A stretch of DNA of 64,000 bases from Chthoniobacterales bacterium. Lineage in GTDB: Bacteria > Verrucomicrobiota > Verrucomicrobiia > Chthoniobacterales > Chthoniobacteraceae. The notes under the pieces are model-generated. The model did not search any database. It saw only the letters and a list, made by a program, of their open reading frames with translations, and was not told the origin of the DNA. The stretch lies in assembly GCA_038207335.1 (NCBI GenBank), contig JBBQZX010000007.1, forward strand, positions 96,001 through 160,000, given 5' to 3'. Both the position numbers and the translations under genes were made by a program. This document shows positions 4,819-21,991 of the stretch, one piece after another (the stretch's first letter is position 1; the number at the start of each line of letters is the position of its first letter).

Positions 4819-5703
4819 TTAGTTCGGCGAGCCCGTGGATGTCCGCACGGGCGGAGCATCGGGCGTCGGCGGAGCGGAGACTGCCTTCTCGCCGGAGGGC
4901 GCTGGCTGTGCGGCGCCAGGAGCGGGTGCTGGAACGACAGGCGTGGGGGCGTCGGGGTGCTGGAGTTTCGCGAGTTCCTGATACCACGAGTCCCAGTCAC
5001 TCTGCGGCTCGACGGCCATCGTGGCGCGCATGGCGTAATGACCCGCGCCGCAAAGCTGCGCGCAGACGATCTCGAAATTGCCCGTCTTGATCGGGCGGAA
5101 CCAAACCGGCACACGCGATCCCGGAATCGCATCCTGCGTGATGCGCATGTTGTGCAGCGAAAGACTGTGGATCACGTCCTTTGAGGTAATCTCGATGACA
5201 GTCGGCTTGTAATTGATGAGGTGCAGTTCGTTTTTTGAAACCACGTCGTCCTTGCCTGCAGGGTCGTTCGGATCGAGGCCGAGCGGATTGTTCGCATCCA
5301 CGAGGTGCGCGTTCTGCCGTCCGAAGATGCCGTCAGGGCCGGGGTAGTGAAAATTCCACGCGAATTGCTCGCCGACAGCGTGGACACGCAGAGCCTGCGC
5401 TTTATCGGGGAAGGAATCCTCAGTCACGCGCTTGCCCCACAGCGGGAGGCCGAAGCCGAGCAGCAGCACCGCCTCAACGAGAACGACTGTGAACTCGAGA
5501 TGCGTGGAAACCTTGCTTTTAACACCGTGATAATTGGCGCGCGGATTCCGCGACCGATGGAAACGGTAGATCGTGTAGAGGAAAAAGATGAACCAGCCGA
5601 TGAACAGGAGGAGCATGAACCAATGGCAGAACTCGAGCATGTGATCGATCGAGTAGCCGTGTTCGGAAGCGTCGGGGACGATCCCCATCCATTTGTTGAG
5701 CAT
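4819..5703 (-). CDS. ctaC: Cytochrome c oxidase subunit II (CuA), no fused heme-c domain
   Basis: Two TM helices, QFAWNFHY, SKDVIHS, DAIPG, CAQLCGAGHYAM CuA motif; Pro/Ala tail; no CxxCH. Confidence 0.95.
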   Translation of the reverse strand: MLNKWMGIVPDASEHGYSIDHMLEFCHWFMLLLFIGWFIFFLYTIYRFHRSRNPRANYHGVKSKVSTHLEFTVVLVEAVLLLGFGLPLWGKRVTEDSFPDKAQALRVHAVGEQFAWNFHYPGPDGIFGRQNAHLVDANNPLGLDPNDPAGKDDVVSKNELHLINYKPTVIEITSKDVIHSLSLHNMRITQDAIPGSRVPVWFRPIKTGNFEIVCAQLCGAGHYAMRATMAVEPQSDWDSWYQELAKLQHPDAPTPVVPAPAPGAAQPAPSGEKAVSAPPTPDAPPVRTSTGSPN

Positions 5704-6561: not shown

Positions 6562-7539
6562 TCAAAGGAGGTAGAAGAGCGGGAAGACGAAAATCCAGAC
6601 GAGATCGACGAAGTGCCAGAAAAGACCGACGACTTCGACACGATTGGCGAGGTGCTCAGGGTTGGTCTTGTAGAGCTTCGCGCCAGGTCCCCAGAAATAA
6701 AGGAATACCAGCACGCCCGCCAAGACGTGCGCACCGTGCAAGCCGGTGATCGTGAAATAGACCGCGAAGTAGGAACTGTGCCGGGGGATGAACATGCTGG
6801 GACTCGAGATTTCCAAGTCTTCCGCGTGGATGACCGCGGTCTTCATCGACAGCTTCTTCGGCCAGAAATGCGGACGTTCGTTGTCTTCACTGGTCGGCTC
6901 GGCGTTCACCTCATCAAGCTGGATCACGTAGTCGGTGGGATCATCCGTGCGGATGATCGGCGCGAGACCTTCTGCCGAGTGTTCACCCTCAGCATGCAGT
7001 TCGTGCTCGAAATGTTCGGCGTTCTTCTCTGCCACCTCTGCGTAGTGGGAACCCTTCGGAGCATCGAGCAGGTGACCAGTGATCTCGTAGCGCGGATCGA
7101 GGTTGTGCTCCTTGAGGAAGGCGTTGCCGAGATAAGGCTCATACTTCTCCAGTGACTCTTTTTTGATGAAGACGCCGAAGTGATTGAACTTCTGCGGATA
7201 CTCATACGCCAGCTTCACCACAAGGAAGAGGATGCCACACAAGATCGTGATGGCCATGTAGAACTTGTATTGCGCGAACTTTCGCATCTTCAGCGCAGCC
7301 CAAGACAACACTACCGTGACCGATGACAGGATGAGCACCGCGGTGTTGAATGTGCCAACTGGAACATTCAGCAAGCCGTGCGGCCAGTATCCCGGTTCAG
7401 CGCCAAGGCGGAGAAAGATGTAGCCCGAGAAAAGCCCGCCGAAGAGCATGACTTCCGATGCCAGAAAGAGCCAGATGCCCAGCTTGGCATTGTAGAGCCC
7501 CGTGTCCGGGCGCGCCGTTACTTCATGTGGAATTTGCAT
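6562..7539 (-). CDS. ctaE: Cytochrome c oxidase subunit III with a large soluble insertion
   Basis: KLGIWLFLASEVMLFGGLF, NTAVLILSS, YFTITGLHGAHV, GLFWHFVDLVWIFVFPLFY motifs. Confidence 0.95.
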   Translation of the reverse strand: MQIPHEVTARPDTGLYNAKLGIWLFLASEVMLFGGLFSGYIFLRLGAEPGYWPHGLLNVPVGTFNTAVLILSSVTVVLSWAALKMRKFAQYKFYMAITILCGILFLVVKLAYEYPQKFNHFGVFIKKESLEKYEPYLGNAFLKEHNLDPRYEITGHLLDAPKGSHYAEVAEKNAEHFEHELHAEGEHSAEGLAPIIRTDDPTDYVIQLDEVNAEPTSEDNERPHFWPKKLSMKTAVIHAEDLEISSPSMFIPRHSSYFAVYFTITGLHGAHVLAGVLVFLYFWGPGAKLYKTNPEHLANRVEVVGLFWHFVDLVWIFVFPLFYLL

Positions 7540-7542
7540 GTC

Positions 7543-9471
7543 TTAGTGTGCCTGAGCTGGAACCGGAACGGCGGAAGCGACGACTTTGACTCCAACCGGC
7601 TCAGTCTGAGGCGTGAAGTCTTTGTCTGCCCCAGGGACGCTGTATTCGTAAGGACCGCGATAGACGGTGATTTCGGTATCGAAGTTCCCATGTCCGGGAG
7701 GCGACGGCGCATCCCATTCGACGGTCGTCGCATCCCACGGATTCCGGCCGACTTTCTTTCCGTTAAACATGCTCCAGAAGAAATTGAAGATGAACGGGAG
7801 TTGGAACGCGGCGAGGCAGAACGCCGAGGTGCTCATGAATTTATTCCAGTGCAAGACGGGGCCCGCGAACTGATAAGTCAAGTGCTCCAAATCCGCGCCA
7901 CCGCCATCGTACCAGCGGCGATGCACACCCGCCATGCCTTGTAGGAACATGGGGAAGAAGAGGCCATTGATGAAAACCAAGGAACCCCAGAAGTGAATGC
8001 GGCCAAGGAAGTCATTCAACTGGCGACCGGTCGCTTTTGGGAACCAATAATAGACGCCGGCGAAAATAGCGAAAATCGTTCCCGGCGCGACGATGTAATG
8101 GAAGTGCCCGATGATGTAGTAGGTGTCGTGCAGGTAGAGATCGACGGCATTGAAGGCCAGCGGGATGCCCGTAAGACCGCCGATGCCGAACATTGGCATG
8201 AAGGCAGTGGCGAACATCATCGGCATGGTGAATCGGATCGACCCGCCCCACAGCGATAGCATGAGTGCGGTGATCAGGATGACCGATGGGATGGAGATGA
8301 GGATGGTCGTGACTTGGAAGAAGCCCGCGACCGTGGCGCCCATCCCAGTCATATACATGTGATGCGCCCAGACGATGAACGAGAGGAAGGCGAGGACGAA
8401 GATCGCGCCGACCATCGCTTTGTATCCGTAGAGCGGCTTGCGCGTGTTATTTGCCACGACCTCCGCGATTATGCCGATGCCGGGCAGGATGAGGACATAG
8501 ACCTCCGGGTGAGCCAAGAACCAGAACAAGTGCTGCCAGAGCAACGGACTGCCGCCGCCGGACCAGTCGGTGAGCCTTTGCCCCACGATCAAGCCCGTCG
8601 GCATGAAGAAGCTCGTGCCGAAGACGCGATCCATGAACTGGAAGATGCCCGCGGCCTCGAGCGGAGGGAACGCGAGAAGCAGGAGGAAGGCGGTGATGAA
8701 TTGCGCCCAGACGAAGAACGGGAGGCGCATCCAAGTCATGCCCGGCGCGCGTAATTGGATGATGGTCGCGATGAAGTTCACGGAGCCCAGTAGGGAGGCC
8801 GTGATGTTGAAAATCATGCCGGTGAGCCAAAGGGTTTGGCCGTTGAAAAAGTGGTGGTGGCCAATGCCCATGTCCGCGATGCCTGCGAGCGGCGGGTAGG
8901 CCGTCCAGCCCGATTTTGCGGCACCGCCGGGGACGAGGAAACTGACGAGCATGAAGATACAACTGATGAAGAAGCACCAGTAGCTCGCCATGTTGATGCG
9001 CGGAAAGGTCATGTCGGGCGCGCCGATTTGCAGCGGGACGACGAAGTTTCCAAAAGCGGCGAAGGCAATCGGCACGATGCCGAAGAAGACCATGATGGTG
9101 CCGTGCATCGCACCCATCGTGTTGTAGCCGTCGGGCGATAGGACTCCGGCAGGAAATTGGTCGCTGATGGCGCGCAGCCAGAACCAGCCGTCGAATTGCC
9201 CCGCGACGACTGGATGGGTCACGAGGAAGTTTTGCGCAGCGATGAAGGCGTGGCCGATGACTGGCACCGCGGTGCCAGGATGCGCGAGCTGCCACCGCAT
9301 GATGAGCATGAGGCAGAAGCCGAAGAACAGGAACGCGAGGCCGGTCAGGCCATACTGGATGCCGATCGTTTTGTGATCGGTGGAGAAGATGTATTTCCGC
9401 CAATAGCTGAGCTCGTGATGATGGTCGTCGTGATGCGCGGCGTGCGGATCGGCGTGTGTGTGAATTTCCAT
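7543..9471 (-). CDS. ctaD: Cytochrome c oxidase subunit I, type A1 (aa3)
   Basis: STDHKTIG, MHGTIMVFF, PDMTFPRIN, HPEVY, WAHHM, LHDTYYIIGHFHY, RR; all six His ligands present. Confidence 0.97.
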   Translation of the reverse strand: MEIHTHADPHAAHHDDHHHELSYWRKYIFSTDHKTIGIQYGLTGLAFLFFGFCLMLIMRWQLAHPGTAVPVIGHAFIAAQNFLVTHPVVAGQFDGWFWLRAISDQFPAGVLSPDGYNTMGAMHGTIMVFFGIVPIAFAAFGNFVVPLQIGAPDMTFPRINMASYWCFFISCIFMLVSFLVPGGAAKSGWTAYPPLAGIADMGIGHHHFFNGQTLWLTGMIFNITASLLGSVNFIATIIQLRAPGMTWMRLPFFVWAQFITAFLLLLAFPPLEAAGIFQFMDRVFGTSFFMPTGLIVGQRLTDWSGGGSPLLWQHLFWFLAHPEVYVLILPGIGIIAEVVANNTRKPLYGYKAMVGAIFVLAFLSFIVWAHHMYMTGMGATVAGFFQVTTILISIPSVILITALMLSLWGGSIRFTMPMMFATAFMPMFGIGGLTGIPLAFNAVDLYLHDTYYIIGHFHYIVAPGTIFAIFAGVYYWFPKATGRQLNDFLGRIHFWGSLVFINGLFFPMFLQGMAGVHRRWYDGGGADLEHLTYQFAGPVLHWNKFMSTSAFCLAAFQLPFIFNFFWSMFNGKKVGRNPWDATTVEWDAPSPPGHGNFDTEITVYRGPYEYSVPGADKDFTPQTEPVGVKVVASAVPVPAQAH

Positions 9472-12214: not shown

Positions 12215-13708
12215 TTAATGTTTCTCCTCTCCAGGGACCGCGAAGAGTGTCGGCGCGCCGCCCGGTTGTCCGATCCGCAGCAGCATGAGCAGGAAGTGGA
12301 GCGCGAAGATGATGTGCGCGATGGCTACAAAGCCAATCGCGAGTGTGTGACCGGCGAGATAGACTTGGCCGATGCCGATGACTTGGGTGAAGGTCGCCTC
12401 CGGATCGATCATCGCAAGGCCGGCGGCGAGACCGGAGAAGGCAAGCATGGCGATGAGGACTCCGCCGCCGTAAGCCGCTCCCCAGAAGTGGAGCTTGATG
12501 AGTGTGGAGGAAAGCCACTCGCAGCCGACGAGACGCGGCGTGATGTAATAGATCGCGCCGAACATGATCATCGAGAAGAACGCGTAGATGACCAGTTGAT
12601 GCTGCGCGGCTTGGAACTGCGTGAAGTGGACGATGCTATCGACGCTTCGGAGCGAGGTGAGGATTCCCACGACACTGGCGACCGCAAAAGCCACGGTGCC
12701 AAAGTAGGTGAAGCGGATGGTGGGAGAGTAATAGACCATCTGCGTGTGGCCGCGCATCGTGAAGATGAGGTTGGTCGTCACGGTTGCGATGGGCACGAGC
12801 ATCATGAGGCTCGCCGCGATGCTCACGGTCGCGAGCCATGCGGGGATCGGGCCACCGCTGAGACGCACCATCGCGGTGAGTCCGCCGAAAAGTGCAAATG
12901 TCCAGAAGCCGATAGTCGCGAGGTTGTAGCTGTAGATCGGCGTGTTGACGACTTTCGGAATGAGGTAGTAGGCCGCGGCCAGACCGATGGCGGTGAACCA
13001 CAGGACGAGGATACTTTGCGAATACCACGCGGCGACGACGCTCTGCATGACTCCTTGGAGCTGTGGCAAGCCGTTTAGGAGCTGCGCGACGCCGAAGAGC
13101 CACGGGAACCAGAAGAAGGCGCCGAGCAGATACCAGACAGAAATATAGACGGGCGATTTGCGGCGGAAGCGGTAAAGGATCGCGCCCCACAGACCGACGA
13201 GGACGTATCCTAGGAACATGATCGCCGCCGCGGCACGGGGGATCTCCATGCCTTCGATGCCGGAGGTTTTACCAGCGAGGATGCAGAGGATGCCGATGAC
13301 TAGGCCGAGATTCCAAAGCAACGCGCCGAAAACGAGAAAGCCAGGGTAGCGGATGGAGACGCGACAGAGTCGCGACATGAGCCAGATGCCGACGCCCATT
13401 CCAGCGAGGCTGGCCCAGCCGTAGGTCAGGGTGAGATTGTAAGCCGGGGCGATGCGGCCGTACGTGAGCCACGAGCAATCGGCGAGGAAGCCGGGGTGGT
13501 GGAGCTTCACCGAGGTGATGAAGCCGAACACGGTGGAGAGGAGGAGCCAGCCGATCGCGGTGGTGAAGAAGAGCAGCACCGGGCCCGCTGCGGCGGCGTC
13601 GATCGTCGCGCGTTCTATGGATACTTTGGCCTTCGCCGCTTGGGCGGGCACGGCCTCGATCGCGACGGCCGTTGTCGGTTTGATTTCTGGAGCGGCGACG
13701 GCGGTCAT
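12215..13708 (-). CDS. cbb3-type oxidase subunit I-like (CcoN-fold) protein lacking heme/CuB histidines
   Basis: Scaffold motifs WLTYGR, E..E, YISVWY, YYLIPK..PIYSY, HFTQ, LHFW are kept; ligand His positions are substituted. Frame is intact and coupled to its neighbours. Confidence 0.9.
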   Translation of the reverse strand: MTAVAAPEIKPTTAVAIEAVPAQAAKAKVSIERATIDAAAAGPVLLFFTTAIGWLLLSTVFGFITSVKLHHPGFLADCSWLTYGRIAPAYNLTLTYGWASLAGMGVGIWLMSRLCRVSIRYPGFLVFGALLWNLGLVIGILCILAGKTSGIEGMEIPRAAAAIMFLGYVLVGLWGAILYRFRRKSPVYISVWYLLGAFFWFPWLFGVAQLLNGLPQLQGVMQSVVAAWYSQSILVLWFTAIGLAAAYYLIPKVVNTPIYSYNLATIGFWTFALFGGLTAMVRLSGGPIPAWLATVSIAASLMMLVPIATVTTNLIFTMRGHTQMVYYSPTIRFTYFGTVAFAVASVVGILTSLRSVDSIVHFTQFQAAQHQLVIYAFFSMIMFGAIYYITPRLVGCEWLSSTLIKLHFWGAAYGGGVLIAMLAFSGLAAGLAMIDPEATFTQVIGIGQVYLAGHTLAIGFVAIAHIIFALHFLLMLLRIGQPGGAPTLFAVPGEEKH

Positions 13709-14200: not shown

Positions 14201-15403
14201 TCAGTTGGTCAGTTTGATAGACGCTGCGAGCCGCGGGTCGCGGGTGGGGAAGAGATAGGTCGCCCCGAGGTTTTTGAAAAACAGCCACACGAGGATCGCG
14301 CCGATTCCAACGAGCGGGAGCAGGTCGAAAACGCTGGGTGATGCGCCTGTCGAGTGCAGCGCGGGGAGGACGACGACGTAGATGTCGATCATGTGGATGA
14401 AGAGAATCCAGCCGGCGACCATGCAGAGGTAGCGCGGCTTTTTCTTTGTCCACTGAAGTAGCAAAACTGGGAAAGGCAGGAAGAATCGTCCGACTACGAG
14501 CAGGGTGCTAAAATACCACCAGCTGTTGGTGTTGCGAATCTGGAAGTAGATCGTCTCTTCCGGGATATTCGCATACCAGATGAGCATGTACTGGCTGAAG
14601 CCGATGTAGGCCCAAAAAATGGTGAAGGTGAGCATGAACTTGCCCATGATGTGGTAGTGCTCGAGCGTGACCACGTTCAGATGCCCGCGAATCTTTAGCC
14701 AAGTGATGATGAGCACGAGCAGGGACATGGAGCTGCCCGCTGCACCGGCGAAGAGATAGACACCCCACATGGTCGAGAACCAGTGGTAGTTCAGGCTCAT
14801 CAACCAATCGACTCCAGAGAATGTGATGCCGAGAGCTACAGCGAAAATGCCCGCGACTCCCAACTTCCGCATCGCAAAACTATGCCTCGCCGCTCCATCT
14901 TTGTCTTGGAGAGTAGAGTGGCGCTTGAGTCCGAATGCGATGCCTCCGAGAGCAAGGAAATAAACGGCGGCGCGGATAAGGAAGAACGGCTTCGAGAGGT
15001 ACGGCTGCTTGGCGTCCAGTAACGGATCGATGCCCGGGCTAAGGTTCCACCATTTAAACAGGATGCCAGCGCAGAGCAGGATCGGGATGAAGAACAGGAC
15101 GAAGTACGGGATAAGGCTCGCGACGTTTTCCAACTGTCGCCGGACGACGACCGACCACTCCGCATCGGTGGCGTGATGGAGGCAAATCCAGAAAAGCGTC
15201 CCAACGCAAATCGTGAAGAAGTAGGTGAAGGCGAAGAGCCATGAGAACGCGAACTGCGGACGCCAGCCGGGGACGATGAGACCAATGAAGCTCAACAGGA
15301 TCGCGACCGCGCCGACGCCGAGCAAGATAGTCGGCAGGCCACCGAGTTTCTTGATATCGAACTTCTCGGCTACGGGAACAGGAGTGTCGTGTGAGTCGCT
15401 CAT
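14201..15403 (-). CDS. actF: Alternative complex III subunit F
   Basis: Polytopic; DWLMSL..WFSTMWG, FWAYIGFSQYMLIWYANIPEE, PTRDPRL motifs. Confidence 0.93.
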   Translation of the reverse strand: MSDSHDTPVPVAEKFDIKKLGGLPTILLGVGAVAILLSFIGLIVPGWRPQFAFSWLFAFTYFFTICVGTLFWICLHHATDAEWSVVVRRQLENVASLIPYFVLFFIPILLCAGILFKWWNLSPGIDPLLDAKQPYLSKPFFLIRAAVYFLALGGIAFGLKRHSTLQDKDGAARHSFAMRKLGVAGIFAVALGITFSGVDWLMSLNYHWFSTMWGVYLFAGAAGSSMSLLVLIITWLKIRGHLNVVTLEHYHIMGKFMLTFTIFWAYIGFSQYMLIWYANIPEETIYFQIRNTNSWWYFSTLLVVGRFFLPFPVLLLQWTKKKPRYLCMVAGWILFIHMIDIYVVVLPALHSTGASPSVFDLLPLVGIGAILVWLFFKNLGATYLFPTRDPRLAASIKLTN

Positions 15404-16089
15404 TGCTTCTTTTCCTGCTGCAATTCTTTCTGCTGCGCCTCGGATAGATCGGCGAGCTTCGCATTTTGGCTGCGCTGGAGCGTGCGCAGGTAGCTCACGA
15501 TGGCCCAGCGATCTTCCACCGCGATCTGCGGACCGTAGGCACCCATCGTGTTCTTGCCGTTGGTGATCGTGCTAAAAATCTGACCGTCGGGCATCGTGCG
15601 GATTCGCTCGTCTTGCAGGTTTGCCACCGTGGCCCAGTTGCCGATTTGCTGGACGATTCCGTTGCCCATGGCGGTGTGGCCGTGGCAGACGGCGCAGTTG
15701 ATGTCGAAGCGCTGCTGGCCTCGCTGTATCAGCTTGTCGGTGACTTCGAGCGGGAAACCGTCGCCATAGACGTCGCCGAACTTGCCGGTGTTGTAATAGT
15801 CGGGCTGGTTGCTGAATCCCTCCTGCGCGAGCGTTCCGTTCTTTGCTCCGGCTTGAAGGTATCGGCCCGGCAGGCTGTAGCCGATCGGCACCGTTCCGGC
15901 GACGGGTTTGCGCTCGGCACTGCCGTCAGCGAAGAAGCCGCTCGTGTGCTGTGGCTGATACTTTGGCTGACGATCCATGTCCGGGAAAATCTCGAGCGGA
16001 GGCAGCTCGCTCTTTGCGCCGCGGAAGCCGGCGAGGGCGATCACCGCGCAGGTTATTAAGAGAAATGAGGCGAAGAAATAACGAAGCAT
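15400..16089 (-). CDS. actE: Alternative complex III subunit E (monoheme cytochrome c)
   Basis: PDMDRQPK, PVAGTVP, RGQQRFDINCAVCHG, DRWAIVSY motifs. Confidence 0.93.
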   Translation of the reverse strand: MLRYFFASFLLITCAVIALAGFRGAKSELPPLEIFPDMDRQPKYQPQHTSGFFADGSAERKPVAGTVPIGYSLPGRYLQAGAKNGTLAQEGFSNQPDYYNTGKFGDVYGDGFPLEVTDKLIQRGQQRFDINCAVCHGHTAMGNGIVQQIGNWATVANLQDERIRTMPDGQIFSTITNGKNTMGAYGPQIAVEDRWAIVSYLRTLQRSQNAKLADLSEAQQKELQQEKKQ

Positions 16090-16102
16090 GTGGCCTTAGT
16101 TT

Positions 16103-16648
16103 CTAGTCGTGGATGAGGGTCACGTGCTTGCCGCCGATGCCTTCGAGAAGCTCGCGAGTCTTGGACTCCGAGAACTTCGGATCACGGGCTTCGATGACGA
16201 CGAAGAAGCCATCGTCGGTCGCGCGCTTGAAGCGCTCCCAGTTAAAGACCGGATGATACCACTTCGGCAGTTGGTTCATGATGAGCAGCGCGAAGACTGT
16301 GGCGAATGCCGAGCAAAGGATCGTGAGCTCGAAGAAGATCGGGAAAAAGGCGGGGACCGTGCGCCAATCGAACGGCTTGCCATGCACGATGAGCGGGTAA
16401 ATTCCCCACGAAGGAATGAAGGTGAGGCAAACTGCGGTGAGCAGACCGGTGATTCCGCCGCAAAGGACCGCAGCGGAAAGCCATGACTTGCCGAGACCCA
16501 TCGCGCTGTCCATGCCATGCACGGGAAATGGGGAGTGGACATCCCAGCGTTTGAAGCCGGCGTCGCGCACTTTTTCAGCGGCGATCATGAGGTCGGCGGC
16601 TGTGTCGAACTCCGCGCCCAATCCATATACTTTACGGTATTCAGCCAT
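16103..16648 (-). CDS. actD: Alternative complex III subunit D (DUF3341)
   Basis: DVHSPFPVHGMD, GKP..PAFFPIFFELTIL, ATDDGF motifs. Confidence 0.95.
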   Translation of the reverse strand: MAEYRKVYGLGAEFDTAADLMIAAEKVRDAGFKRWDVHSPFPVHGMDSAMGLGKSWLSAAVLCGGITGLLTAVCLTFIPSWGIYPLIVHGKPFDWRTVPAFFPIFFELTILCSAFATVFALLIMNQLPKWYHPVFNWERFKRATDDGFFVVIEARDPKFSESKTRELLEGIGGKHVTLIHD

Positions 16649-16658
16649 GTCGTTTGAC

Positions 16659-18107
16659 TTAGGAATGGTGAGCGTTTGTGCCGACGCCGGAACCGGGCTT
16701 GCGTTGATGCGGGTCAGCTTCTGGAGTGACGATTTTAACCTCGGACATCGCGATCATCGGGAGGAAGCGCATGAAGAGTAGGAAGAGAGTCAAAAAGATG
16801 CCGAAGGTGCCGACGAAGGTCCAAATTTCGACCCATGAAGGCGAGTAGTGCCGCCACGAGGACGGCAGGAAATCCTGAGCCAGCGAGGTTACGATGATGA
16901 CGAATCGCTCGAACCACATGCCAGTATTGACGAACATGCAGACGATGAAGACGACGATGTAGTTCGACCGTGCCCATTTCAGCCAGAAAATCTGCGGCGA
17001 AAGGACGTTGCATGTCATCATGCAATAGTAGGCCCATGAGTACCAGCCGGAGTTGTTGATGCCGATGCGTGCATGGAAGAAGGTAAACATCTCGAACTTG
17101 TTCGCGCTATACCACGCGATGAAGAGTTCCATCAGATACGCGTATCCGACGATGCTGCCTGTCAGCAGGATGATCTTCGCCATTTTATCGACATGCTGAC
17201 GGGTCAGGAGATCGTCGAGCTGCGGATAAAGAAGCCTGGCCGGAAGCAGGATGGTGAGCACCATTGCGAAGCCGCCGAAGATTGCGCCCGCGACGAAGTA
17301 AGGCGGGAAGATGGTGGTGTGCCAGCCGGGTAGGATGGATGTGGCAAAGTCGAAGGAGACGACGGAATGCACGGAGAGCACGAGCGGAGTGCTGATGCCG
17401 GCCAGGATGAGATAGGCCATCTCGTAGTGGCGCCATTGGCGGTTCGAGCCGCGCCAGCCCAAGGCGAAGATGCCGTAGAGGTAGCGGGAGACGCGGTTTT
17501 TCGCGCGGTCGCGCAAGGTCGCGAGATCGGGGACGAGGCCGGTATACCAGAAGAGGACGGAGACGGTGAAGTAGGTCGAGACTGCAAAGACGTCCCAGAG
17601 CAGCGGAGAGCGGAAGTTTGGCCAGATGGCGTTGCCGTTCGGAACGGGTGCCAGAAACCACGCCATCCAAACACGACCGACGTGGATGCCGGGGAAGATG
17701 CCGGCGCAGACGACGGCGAAGAGCGTCATGGCCTCGGAGGCGCGGTTGATGGAGGTGCGCCACTTTTGCCGGGTCAGGAAAAGCACGGCGGAAATGAGCG
17801 TGCCGGCGTGGCCGATGCCGATCCAGAAGACGAAGTTCGTGATGTCCCACGCCCAGCCGACGGTCTTGTTTTCCCCCCACATACCGACGCCGTTGGAGAT
17901 TTGCAGGCCGATACAGAAGAGGCCGAAGAGCGCAACCGGGGTCGTGATCAGCATCGCGAGCCACCACCAGAGCGGGGTGCGCGATTCGACGATGCTCGAG
18001 ACATTGTCTGAAATCCACGAGAGCGAGCGGTCGTTCTGCACCAACGGAACTTTGACGAGTTCCGGCTGAGTCGTGAGGGAAACTGTGGGGGCGTCGGCTT
18101 CAGTCAT
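16659..18107 (-). CDS. actC: Alternative complex III subunit C (NrfD family quinol-oxidising subunit)
   Basis: [65 protein letters not shown] motifs. Confidence 0.97.
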
Positions 18108-21100
18108 TACGCTTCACCTCCGGGATGTTCGGCTTTGCCTTCATGGCTCTCGTGATGGTGTTCTCGCGAATAGGCTCCGACCTTCTCCGCACCCGGCATT
18201 TTCATGTTGGGGTTGCGGATACGGGCCAGATACCAGACGCGGGTGCCGACGTTGAGATACTCGAGGAGCCGGTAGCCGCGCTCAGTGGCGCGCACTTTCG
18301 AGACGCTGCTGTCGGGGTTCGCGATATCGCCAAAGGTGATCGCATCTGTCGGACAGGCTTGCGCGCAGGCTACTGTGAAGGCATCGGCGGGGATGCGGAT
18401 GTTATCGGAATCGCGCGCGGCGACCTTTGCAGCGATTTTAGCTTCCTGGATTCGTTGCACGCAAAAGGTGCATTTTTCCATGACTCCGCGCATCCGGACG
18501 GTGACGTTCGGGTTCTTCTGAAGCTTGATGGAATCCTCGGTGCCTTTCGGCGCGGTGAGGTTCCATTTATAAAGGCCGCGGTCTTCGATGTTGCGCTGGT
18601 TGTAGTCGAAGAAGTTGAAGCGGCGGACTTTGAATGGACAGTTGTTCGCGCAGTATCGGGTGCCGATGCAGCGGTTGTAGGCCATCACGTTTAGTCCGTC
18701 GTCGCTGTGAACGGTGGCGTTGACGGGGCATACGGTTTCGCACGGCGCATTCTCGCAGTGCTGGCAGAGCATGGGCTGATAGACCATCTCAGGATCGGCG
18801 GTCTCGTCGCCGACTCCCGCAAAGTAACGATCGGTGCGAATCCAGTGCATCTCGCGGCCGTTGTGGACCTGCTCTTTGCCGACGATCGGAATGTTGTTCT
18901 CCGACTGGCAGGCGACCATGCAGGCGGAGCATCCGGTGCAGGACGAAAGGTCCACGGTCATTCCCCACTGGTGCTGGTTCGTGAGCGGCGGGTGGGAATA
19001 GAGAGAGCTGGTAACAACCTCGGTTTTCTTGCCGTTGACGACTTTCCACTCGGCCTCGGCATCCATGCCGAGCGTCTTTGCGAATTCAGGGTTCTCCTTG
19101 TATTGCTCGATCGTCCCTTCACGGACGAGGTCAGGGCCACGGCCTTCGAGCGTGCCGTGCTCCTGCGTGACTGCGAGAAGGTAGGTGTCGCCGGTTTTCG
19201 CAACTTTCGCGCCGACGATGAAATAAGGCTGTGCGGTGCTGCGGAGGCGGTAGGCATTGAAGCCGGGGCTCTTGCCTGTTGCGTCTTTTCCGCCGACGCG
19301 ACCGGAGACTTCGCGGCCGTATCCGAGTGCGATCGAGAGTGAATTGTCGGCGTGCCCGGGCGCGATAAAAACGGGGATTTTCAGCGAACGCTCCTGCACG
19401 GTGATGTCGATCACGTCGCCGGTTTCGACGCCGAGCTTTGCGGCACTGGCGGGGCTGATGAGAGCGGCGTTGTCCCATGTGACCTTGGTGATCGGATCGG
19501 GGATTTCCTGGAGCCAGCCGTTGTTGGCGAAGCGTCCGTCATCGACTGTGTAGTCGGCAGTGAGGACGATCTCGAAGCTGTTTTCGTCGAGAGCGGGAGC
19601 GGAAAAATTGTCCTTCGCGGATGTCGTGGAGTCGGCGGAAATCGCGAGCGGCTCGGGCTTTGCAGCGCTGTGGGCGAGGAAGCCGTCGTGGAGGAATTTT
19701 GCCCACGCGACGGTGAAATCGGCGGGGCTGGCGGCTTGGCGGAAAGTTTCTTGGATGAGCTCGGGGCCGGTGGTTTTTGCGTGGCCGGCGAATTTTGCGA
19801 GGATGTCCAGCTCCGACCAGCCGTCGTAGAGCGGCAGGATCATCGGCTGGATGGAAAGGTGGCTGCCGTCGGTGGCGTAGGCGTCGCCCCACGACTCGAG
19901 ATAGGTCGCGATCGGCACCTGCCAGGTGGCGAGTTCGGAGGTTTCGTCTTCGTGCAGGCCGACGCGGACAATCGTGCCTTTTTTCTCGTCGCGGAGGGTC
20001 TTGAGGACTTTCGCGAATTCGAGGTCGGACGGCGCGTTGTAGATCGGATTGCCGCCGATGATGATGATCGCGCGGGTCGTGCCGTCGCCGATCGATTTGG
20101 TGAGTTCGCCGATGCTGGCGGCGGGCTTCGCGCCGCGGCGACCGGTGAGCGTTTTGTCGAGGTTGCCGAGCGCGGAGTTGATCGACGCGACGATCGCGTG
20201 GACTCCGGCGGGCTGGCGCGAACCGACGACGACGAGGCTTTTGCCTTTGTTTGCGAGAAGATCGGCGGCGGATTCTTTCACCCACTCCGCGGAGATTTTC
20301 GCGGTCGCGGGCGGGAGCGTTTTTACCAGCGCGAGGAGCGCGGAGTCGCTGGATTTCGCGCCGATTTCCTGCGCGAGGGCGAGGGCGAAGGCACCGATTT
20401 GGCTCGCGGGCATCCGCAGACGGTGGTCGGCCATGCCGCCGGTGACGGTGTAGCGATTTTCGACCGCGTAGAGGCGGTTCATCTTGCCGCCAGCGTCGGG
20501 CTTGCGGCGCGCGGTGAATTGCCGCGTGATGTCGATGGTCGATTCCGTGCCGAGGAAATCGCAGTCGAGCGCCATGATGACGTCGGCTTTTCCCATCTGC
20601 GGAATCGCGGAGATGCCTGCTCCGAAGCTGCCCTCCGGGCCGCCGAGCGGCTCATAAACGGCCCACATCGCCTTTGGAAATTTCTCCTCGATCTCGCCGC
20701 GCAGTCGCTCGCGAGTCGGCCCGTGAATTTCTTCCAAAAGGAACGCGATGCCCGCGCCGTCGGCGGCGTTTTTGATCAGCTCGTCGAGTTCTTTTTCAAA
20801 GGTCGCGACGTCGGACTTTTTGCCGTTTTTGAGGAAATGCTGTGAGCGATCCGGGTCGTAGAAATCGAGGATTGAGGCCTGGGCGAAGATGTCTGTCGCG
20901 CCTTTGCTGGCGGGGTGCAGCGGGTTGCCCTCAATTTTCGTGGGGCGTCCGTCGTGAGTCGTGACGACGAGCGGGATCGCGCCGTTGCGGGTCGGGTAGG
21001 CGCTGGAGAAAAATAGGGCCTTGCCGGGAATCGACCACTCGACGCCGCGCGTGAACGGGACGAGTTGCATTTCCGGCCGGCGGCAGCCGGCGAAGCTGAG

Positions 21101-21304
21101 GCCGGCGAGCGCCATCGACGCGCCCATGAGCTGGAGGAAATTGCGACGGGAAACTTCGCCGCCGCCGAACTCTGACGCACCTTGCGGGAACTCGCGCTCG
21201 AGCCAGCCGCGGAATTCCGGGGTGCCGGAGAGCTGGCCGAGGCTGCGCCAGTATTTCTTGCCAGTGGCGGCCTCGGGCGGGTGATTGAAAACGCGTTTGC
21301 TCAT
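18107..21304 (-). CDS. actB: Alternative complex III subunit B (molybdopterin-oxidoreductase-like plus Fe-S domain, Tat lipoprotein)
   Basis: YWRSL, REFP, SRRNFL Tat motif with FAGC lipobox, [10 protein letters not shown]; Fe-S motifs [40 protein letters not shown]. Confidence 0.97.
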
Positions 21305-21316
21305 CGAAAAATTTCG

Positions 21317-21991
21317 TTAGCGGTGGCAGCCGGCGCAGTTGCCATCGGGCGGATGGACGTTCCATTCCGCCTTTAGTTTCAGGCCGAGCTTTTCCTGCGC
21401 GTCGGTCACGGACTGGCCTTTCTCAGTCGGCGCGGTCCAGTCGAGATTCGTGATTTGGTCGAGCGGGCGCAGCGCGTGCTCGGGGTTCCGGTGGCAGTTG
21501 AGGCAGAAATCCATCGACAGCGGCTTGGCTTGATAGACGACGGCCATTTCGTTGATCTTCCCGTGGCACTCGACGCAAGAGACGCCGCGGTTCACGTGAG
21601 CCGAGTGGTTGAAATAGACGTAGTCGGGGGTCTTGTGGACTTGCACCCACTCGATGGGTTTGCCGGTCTGCCACGAGTCGCGCACGGGCTGGAGCTTCGG
21701 GTTGTCTTTCTGAATCTGCCCGTGGCAGTTCATGCAAACCTGCGTGGTCGGAACGTTCGAGTGCGCGGCGACCTCGACGAAGCTGTGGCAGTAGCGGCAA
21801 TCCATGCCGACTTGCTTCACATGGATGTCGTGCGGAAACGGGACGGGCTGAACGGGTTGGTATCCGACGTTCGTGTATTTGTTGGTAAAGTAATACCCGA
21901 AGCCTGCCGTGAGCGCGACGCCGAGCACGGCGGCACATAGCGCGATTTTGAGAGGCAGGAAGTTGCTCGACCGTGGAAAGATGTTCGCCAT
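21317..21991 (-). CDS. actA: Alternative complex III subunit A (pentaheme cytochrome c)
   Basis: N-terminal TM; five CxxCH motifs (CRYCH, CMNCH, CVECH, CLNCH, CAGCH); QPVPFPH. Confidence 0.96.
   Translation of the reverse strand: MANIFPRSSNFLPLKIALCAAVLGVALTAGFGYYFTNKYTNVGYQPVQPVPFPHDIHVKQVGMDCRYCHSFVEVAAHSNVPTTQVCMNCHGQIQKDNPKLQPVRDSWQTGKPIEWVQVHKTPDYVYFNHSAHVNRGVSCVECHGKINEMAVVYQAKPLSMDFCLNCHRNPEHALRPLDQITNLDWTAPTEKGQSVTDAQEKLGLKLKAEWNVHPPDGNCAGCHR

Follow-up and report, generated by a model that had tools for sequence, protein, structure and literature searches.

A predicted aa3-type oxygen reductase of a Chthoniobacterales bacterium without the K-channel lysine and with a candidate replacement glutamate in subunit II

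The canonical K-channel of aa3-type oxygen reductases brings in chemical protons in two reductive steps and may also be a dielectric channel, according to PMC7196763, where the role of its lysine, as a proton carrier or as a movable positive charge, is described as still debated. Here we describe coxA, encoding subunit I of a predicted aa3-type heme-copper oxidase (HCO) that lacks this lysine, together with its subunit II gene coxB, in a 64,000-nucleotide stretch of DNA from a Chthoniobacterales bacterium (assembly GCA_038207335.1, contig JBBQZX010000007.1, positions 96,001 to 160,000), hereafter the window. The lysine loss is known in outline; the part for specialists to test is a covarying buried acid of subunit II, Glu77, which on balance is probably the replacement mid-membrane protonatable site of a rebuilt K-channel.

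In the supplement of PMC8239418 (Degli Esposti et al. 2021), the A1-type COX1 proteins of Methylacidiphilum sp. Yel and Elusimicrobia are given as lysine-less 'KC-channel' enzymes, and the subclade presented there (Methylacidiphilaceae, Elusimicrobia and Candidatus Calescamantes; Supplementary Table S1 and the table of Fig. S7) is very likely the same branch as that of the window's protein. The published Methylacidiphilum sequence is not among the rows of our trees, and the identity of the branch was taken from three loci of the window's clade (L039, L040 and L054), which match the published Yel row at all ten subunit I positions; by this match, the lysine loss of the branch is already in print. 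The published table differs from the present account in that it tracks only E78 of subunit II and credits helix VII residues, and the parts of PMC8239418 compared here make no mention of the second buried acid, the breadth of the clade or a second clade. The lysine-less A-family oxidases of Fe(II) oxidisers (Acidithiobacillus and relatives; bioRxiv 2020.03.01.968255, PMC8239418) likewise have a hydrophobic residue in place of the lysine and keep the D-channel. However, they are described as mostly having lost the subunit II entry Glu as well (bioRxiv 2020.03.01.968255), keep Thr351, branch deep and have two extra N-terminal helices, whereas the present clade retains the entry Glu in 49 of 57 loci, has a second acid in addition and is closest to lysine-bearing relatives, in trees whose rows hold no Acidithiobacillus-type Fe(II)-oxidiser sequences. 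The B-type (ba3) enzymes also have a channel without lysine, and PMC3084760 describes a K-type channel as workable with hydroxyl residues; their three positions are occupied by Thr, Ser and Tyr, and a D-channel is absent (PMC3084760), whereas the window's protein combines Leu, Ser and Ala with an intact D-channel and is only weakly similar to them (E about 1e-5).

The best PDB matches of the coxA product are the A1-type aa3 oxidases 1AR1 of P. denitrificans and 1M56 of R. sphaeroides (phmmer E 1e-114 and 4e-111, respectively), while the score against TIGR02891, 545 bits, falls under the family cut-off of 671. The enzyme shares with them the His ligands, the HPEVY motif, the D-channel, a two-helix CuA subunit II and a subunit III, and differs in the replacement of K362, S299, S365 and W366 in subunit I and, in subunit II, in W104 to Val, P108 to Glu and a Gln for Glu in the CuA motif. 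Residues 316-521 of subunit I align to 1M56_A without gaps, as does the same stretch to 1AR1_A, covering helices VI-X gap-free, the R. sphaeroides numbers being lower by 37. The R. sphaeroides labels D132, N121, N139, S299, W104 and P108 are the customary ones or were counted off the alignments; K362, T359, S365, Y288, E101, A356 and G327 are used as in PMC9687966. For the comparison, 112 subunit I rows were aligned (the window and homologous loci, after 21 were dropped, namely 20 duplicates and the lysine-less L011), with 71 lysine-less loci, hereafter the clade, and 41 lysine-bearing loci. The features of subunit I are as follows.

7543..9471, minus strand: coxA, HCO subunit I, A1-derived, lysine-less, 642 amino acids (PF00115, 424 bits).
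8242..8316, minus strand: helix VIII, residues 386-410, with remodelled K-channel face, placed by alignment.
8275..8277, minus strand: Leu399 at the K362 position, codon CTG; Ile in 52, Leu in 14 and Val in 5 of the 71 clade loci.
8284..8286, minus strand: Ser396 at the T359 position, codon TCG; Ser also in 27/41 lysine-bearing loci.
8293..8295, minus strand: Ser393 at the A356 position; Ser in 71/71 clade loci, 39/39 loci of a second lysine-less clade and 3/41 lysine-bearing loci.
8269..8271, minus strand: Thr401 at the F364 position; Thr or Ser in 71/71 clade loci against 0/41 lysine-bearing loci.
8380..8382, minus strand: Ser364 at the G327 position, helix VII; Ser in 68/71 clade loci against 2/41 lysine-bearing loci.
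8464..8466, minus strand: Ala336 at the S299 position; Ser in 41/41 lysine-bearing against 5/71 lysine-less loci.
8497..8511, minus strand: HPEVY, with CuB ligand His321, D-channel Glu323 and cross-link Tyr325, each in 71/71 clade loci.
9013..9015, minus strand: Asp153, D-channel entry; Asp in 66, Glu in 3 and Gly in 2 of 71 clade loci.

The initial annotation of this DNA had reported a Leu, codon 8275-8277, in place of K362, with the D-channel Asp and Glu, the cross-link Tyr and all His ligands retained, and the ungapped alignment bears this out. The Ser that it aligned to T359 is there as well, but no special role can be given to it, and T359-to-Ser as a defect was rejected, as Ser is the residue of most lysine-bearing loci at this position. 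Two further K-channel losses were not in its list, S299 to Ala336 and S365 to Ala402, and the W366 position has a smaller hydrophobic residue. Thus Lys354, Thr351 and Ser291 of the A1 K-channel (P. denitrificans numbering) are replaced by Leu399, Ser396 and Ala336, for which reason the protein is filed as A1-derived and not as a canonical A1 member. The D-channel residues by which the A1 type is defined (PMC3084760, Table 2) are kept as D153, N142, N160 and E323 (D/E in 69, N in 69, N in 69 and E in 71 of 71 clade loci). The ligands of heme a, heme a3 and CuB (H123, H321, H370, H371, H456 and H458) are kept in 70-71 of 71 loci, one of which is truncated, and the cross-link Y325 of helix VI in all 71; over the metal ligands, Y325, E323, W317 and both arginines together the range is 69-71, the misses being truncated rows. 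A compensating lysine, for which the initial annotation had proposed an alignment check, was rejected: with helices assigned by alignment, none of the protein's 11 lysines lies within the K-channel helices VI-IX, K345 and K351 being within or at the end of the VI-VII loop and the others elsewhere. A single-sequence AlphaFold model of subunit I reached a predicted local distance difference test (pLDDT) score of 41 and was not used.

Leu399 is not a private feature of the window. Position 399 is Leu in 119 and Ile in 2 of 121 proteins (the query and its 120 best homologues), and a sequencing error or private mutation was rejected on this ground. In a FastTree tree of 227 rows, built without the helix VIII columns and with long branches flagged elsewhere, the 71 loci and 6 representatives form a single branch (support 100), and the whole tree has at least 7 changes of lysine state. 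By their titles, the 71 loci belong to Verrucomicrobiota (24), Acidobacteriota (16), Planctomycetota (5), Fidelibacterota (Marinimicrobia; 4), Ignavibacteriota (2) and four single other phyla, with 16 loci carrying no phylum; the nearest homologues with a named source are labelled Verrucomicrobiota or Chthoniobacteraceae. Alignment and tree thus confirm the loss as a clade-wide trait of these predicted proteins, in one clade spanning several phyla. Among 301 sampled genomes of the phylum, the clade is present in 12 (E below 1e-200).

Some further residues of subunit I were observed alongside. Glu272 in helix V (8656-8658) is another clade-typical buried Glu (62/71, Gln in 6), which is not among the common residues of lysine-bearing loci and is absent from the second lysine-less clade. 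Prolines at 426, 437 and 463 in membrane helices IX and X are clade-typical (69-70/71), and a His at 509, kept by 40/41 lysine-bearing loci, is lost in the clade.

Subunits I and II of an aa3 oxidase are a textbook pair, and subunit II was located for 97 of the 112 rows (57 lysine-less, 40 lysine-bearing). Its features in the window are as follows.

4819..5703, minus strand: coxB, subunit II, with two membrane helices (16-47 and 65-93) and a CuA domain.
5473..5475, minus strand: Glu77, buried mid-helix at the R. sphaeroides Pro108 position, candidate lysine replacement.
5494..5496, minus strand: Glu70, the canonical entry glutamate (E101); Glu in 49/57 lysine-less loci.
5623..5625, minus strand: His27, helix 1; in 50/57 lysine-less loci.

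Position 77 is acidic in all 57 lysine-less loci (Glu in 56, Asp in 1), while none of the 40 lysine-bearing loci has an acid there, the residue being Pro, Ser, Thr or Val. The acid is also kept in each of the eight lysine-less loci in which the entry Glu70 is changed (to Asp in two). Trp37 is found in 56/57 lysine-less loci, and position 73 is Val or Ile in the clade instead of Trp or Leu. In two loci (L099 and L101) His27 is gone and a His stands at position 81 of helix 2, one turn above Glu77; no convincing membrane position in subunit I was found to compensate for the loss of His27 or Glu70. A profile of 72 subunit II sequences (alignment A1) places Glu70 on E101 and Glu77 on P108 without gaps, and Pro likewise falls on Glu77 in the alignment to yeast Cox2, while in pairwise phmmer the register of helix 2 is gapped and of low confidence. 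In the model predicted from alignment A1 (pLDDT 90), both glutamates lie within the helix 65-93, and its fold matches aa3 subunit II structures, including 6CI0_B; the hydrophobicity of helix 2 peaks at the site of Glu77. The CuA ligands H179, C214, C218, H222 and M225 are invariant in alignment A1, and two membrane helices, the entry Glu and the CuA site give subunit II the features of the A1 type. No published description of the buried acid was found, in literature searches most of which were not aimed at it and in whose coverage subscription journals were largely outside.

Two observations stand beside these counts. Gln216 (5056-5058) in the CuA motif replaces the usual Glu, which we take to be a ligand of the Mg/Mn site, in 56/57 lysine-less against 5/40 lysine-bearing loci. 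Genomes of family f13 carry solitary lysine-less subunit I copies (L038:5040-7067, L041:12865-14778, L053:12986-14908 and L037:4896-6785), with no subunit II or III found within these loci.

Seven residues of a helix span about 10.5 Å and return to the same face. The depths given in PMC9687966 are about -13 to -12 Å for E101, about -7 Å for S365 and about -2 Å for the level immediately under K362. As Glu77 is seven places past E101 on the same face and about 10 Å higher, it would come near the depth of the lost lysine. Helix 2 of subunit II borders helices VII and VIII at the mouth of the K-channel, as stated in PMC10095113, in which an added carboxylate (deoxycholate) is also described as rescuing a K-channel entry mutant. 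Ser393 and Ser364 are consistent with a rebuilt channel as well, since they occupy the A356 and G327 positions, both named in PMC9687966 among the residues bounding the K-channel. In the mechanism proposed here, chemical protons for the reductive steps would enter from the cytoplasm at Glu70, move to Glu77 on the same face two helix turns higher, and from there pass through Ser396, Ser393 and water to Tyr325, and the D-channel would still carry pumped protons.

A buried acid in subunit II is not limited to this clade. Relatives of P0131 gave 80 further loci, whose subunit I rows are lysine-less in 39, lysine-bearing in 39 and truncated in 2, and a second lysine-less A1 clade was observed, made up of loci L145-L183. 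In an IQ-TREE tree of 68 rows, holding 20 of these 39 loci and 21 of the main clade, the two form separate branches, each with support 100, and their joining, at 88 in the Shimodaira-Hasegawa-like approximate likelihood ratio test (SH-aLRT), is not firm. The second clade lacks Glu77 and instead has an Asp eight residues past the Pro position of subunit II in 30/30 scored loci, a count that excludes L157 and L183 for gaps, L157 nonetheless showing the Asp in the tree alignment. Buried acids thus occur in 57/57 loci of the main clade and 30/30 of the second, and in 0/72 lysine-bearing loci (40 plus 32, L189 being excluded for gaps), in which the subunit II stretch between E101+3 and E101+16 holds neither an acid nor a His, Lys or Arg. 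In the second clade, a His is found within the subunit II stretch in 22/30, Ser393 is present in 39/39 with a hydrophobic residue at the T359 position, and most members lack the subunit II entry Glu in the alignment used. Its subunit I has Glu398, adjoining the old lysine position, in 26/39; in two loci (L161 and L165) Glu398 is absent and a Glu stands at subunit II position 75 instead. This pairing of loss and gain suggests that the two sites are neighbours.

Other lysine-less lines bear on the same point. Of 150 subunit I representatives, 137 cover helix VIII and 53 of these are lysine-less; among the 31 that are placed in the tree outside the main clade, 15 have an acid within residues 389-403, against 0/119 lysine-bearing rows, and a further 9 carry Gln or His at position 399, although these lines are related in groups and the counts overstate their independence. 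A separate group of long subunit I proteins of the A1 type, in which Gln occupies the lysine position, was also observed (P0185, P0197, P0199, P0244, P0254, P0256, P0261 and P0262).

Several points weigh against Glu77 as the replacement site. The contact of Glu77 with helix VIII is one that we infer, and no published contacts of P69/W65 or P108 with the K-channel lysine were found in the literature searched. On a helical wheel, Thr401 stands about 140 degrees from Ser396 and points away from the S396/K362 side. A hydrogen-bonded cluster of Glu77, Thr401 and Trp37 that lies outside the channel and has a structural role could therefore exist instead. The 57/57 are not 57 independent tests, since the main clade represents one evolutionary event, and, with a joining at SH-aLRT 88, the lysine may have been lost only once for both clades. 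The Asp of the second clade also sits eight residues higher, nearer the outer side. [quoted passage not shown] Finally, the positive charge compensation proposed for the lysine ('dielectric channel', PMC7196763) is impossible for an anion.

Among the alternatives, the one that survives best is that the K-channel is sealed and all protons use the D-channel, with Glu77, Thr401, Trp37 and His27 forming a structural or lipid-binding interface. It accounts for the loss of K362, S299 and S365 and the smaller hydrophobic residue for W366, agrees with the D-channel residues retained in 69-71 of 71 clade loci, and has been proposed for other lysine-less A-family enzymes (bioRxiv 2020.03.01.968255). We regard it as unlikely, since it leaves unexplained that both lysine-less clades carry a buried acid in the same helix, one that never occurs together with the lysine, and that acids turn up repeatedly in helix VIII of other lysine-less lines; among the diagnostic columns, moreover, no conserved D-channel change is typical of the clade. 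The initial annotation had suggested either a D-channel-only or a rerouted proton pathway: the rerouting is supported by covariation, namely the subunit II acid and the new serines at two K-channel-lining positions, while its other half, though possible, leaves these conserved gains without an explanation.

A C-family-like 'KC' channel through polar helix VII residues, the class to which Degli Esposti et al. assign the Methylacidiphilum enzyme, would fit Ser364 and the exact reproduction of the published ten-residue pattern by L039, L040 and L054. However, the window's protein is polar at only one of the four KC positions (G349, M353, A356 and S364), where neither His nor Tyr is found; in the clade, 349 is Gly in 64/71 and 353 hydrophobic in 70/71, and the Ser at 356 is also present in 21/41 lysine-bearing loci, which leaves Ser364 alone as clade-typical and makes this channel improbable.

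There is also little likelihood that coxA encodes a slow, regulatory or non-oxygen-reducing paralogue or is a decaying gene. The source genome does carry further oxidases, a lysine-bearing one of type A2 (L001) and one of type cbb3 (L003), and the CcoN-fold neighbour without cofactors shows that dead paralogues can persist in the cluster; yet the clade as a whole conserves all ligands including those of CuA, the cross-link Tyr and both arginines, heme A and assembly genes lie in the same cluster, and in one genome (G158, 94% complete) the lysine-less oxidase is the sole PF00115 match and so the only HCO found, with no bd oxidase found either. Six other genomes have oxidases besides the lysine-less one (G048, G174, G300, G039, G081 and G123). 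Two methanotroph genomes of one contig each (G132 and G279) have the lysine in neither of their two A-family copies; the five PF00115 matches of G132 are two lysine-less A-family, two ba3-type and one nitric oxide reductase (NOR)-type, and this genome has pmo-family genes and a CcoN-like gene without histidines (L040). For M. fumariolicum SolV, PMC10205796 describes a sulfide-insensitive oxidase, proposed to be ba3, that accounts for 3% of maximal respiration in non-adapted cells; if SolV shares the inventory of G132, the remaining respiration would run through the lysine-less aa3 or the second ba3. The invariant active site, together with the inventories of G158 and the methanotrophs, gives signs that the lysine-less enzyme may well work as an oxidase.

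Very improbable is an outside-opening track, in which chemical protons would come from the periplasm via His27, Gln386 and Thr389 and energy yield would be traded for rate or oxygen affinity: His27, Gln386 (66/71) and Thr388 are clade-specific and towards the outer side, the second clade has its Asp high in the helix and mostly no entry Glu, and aa3 genes, in copies whose lysine loss we infer, are upregulated in anoxia in M. caldifontis IT6 (bioRxiv 2024.01.15.574570), yet the main clade retains the entry Glu70 in 49/57 and misses His27 in 7/57.

If Glu77 does replace the lysine, a protonatable group at the right depth is all that the K-channel would need, with no call for a positive charge, and the choice between a 'proton wire' and a 'charge compensation' role of K362 would be decided; a natural and widespread exchange of the lysine for a carboxylate of the neighbouring subunit would be a direct test of the lysine's role. 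Judged from sequences, the chances are about even that a large, biochemically unstudied A-family branch runs its K-channel on a subunit II carboxylate and that the acid can swap between subunits in evolution. The branch includes the only A-family enzymes found in the two verrucomicrobial methanotroph genomes. The lysine loss alone is less surprising, having occurred several times and being already published. For annotation, it matters that in genomes from soil, fresh water and the sea lysine-less enzymes are taken for ordinary aa3 oxidases, and that the adjacent 'cbb3' is often without metal ligands.

The remaining features of the locus are as follows.

6562..7539, minus strand: coxC, subunit III.
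12215..13708, minus strand: CcoN-fold protein with 0/6 metal-ligand histidines in register.
14201..21991, minus strand: alternative complex III genes, upstream of coxA in the same direction, noted as context.

One strand carries, in a single run, the alternative complex III genes, the CcoN-fold gene, ccoO, two cytochromes c, coxA, coxC, coxD, coxB, ctaA, ctaB, SCO and DUF420. The source genome (94.7% complete) has four PF00115 matches, namely the lysine-less coxA, the CcoN-fold neighbour, the lysine-bearing A2 oxidase and a CcoN-CcoO fusion (cbb3) that keeps its histidines, and no bd oxidase was found in it.

The link drawn in the initial annotation, with due caution, between the lysine loss and the CcoN-fold protein without cofactors is not supported, as all four combinations of lysine and histidine states exist among 21 CcoN-like proteins encoded next to a coxA: a lysine-less partner accompanies 17 degenerate ones and two with all six His (L036 and L069), and beside a lysine-bearing coxA one is degenerate (L047) and one has all six His (L048). 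Among loci with at least 6 kb upstream, a CcoN-like gene is present in 17/58 lysine-less and 2/23 lysine-bearing loci, absence being counted per locus and not per genome (G048 has such a gene elsewhere). Dependence of the lysine loss on a CcoN without cofactors was rejected, 41 of the 58 lysine-less loci having no CcoN-like gene. A CcoN-like match is found in 72 of the 301 genomes (68 at E 2e-70 or better and 4 of family f13, by hand count), and the lysine-less clade in 10 of these 72, the ligands being unscored in the other 62. CcoN degeneracy and lysine loss overlap in some Verrucomicrobiota, and their interdependence is not supported.

Beside alternative complex III, the 'cbb3' subunit I has lost its ligands in the window (12215-13708) and in three f13 genomes (L039, L040 and L054), and keeps all six His in L036, L048 and L069; the methanotroph copy is treated as a cbb3 oxidase in PMC8498564. 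The coxC product (6562-7539) has a long hydrophilic insert at about residues 120-250, which the PDB matches skip.

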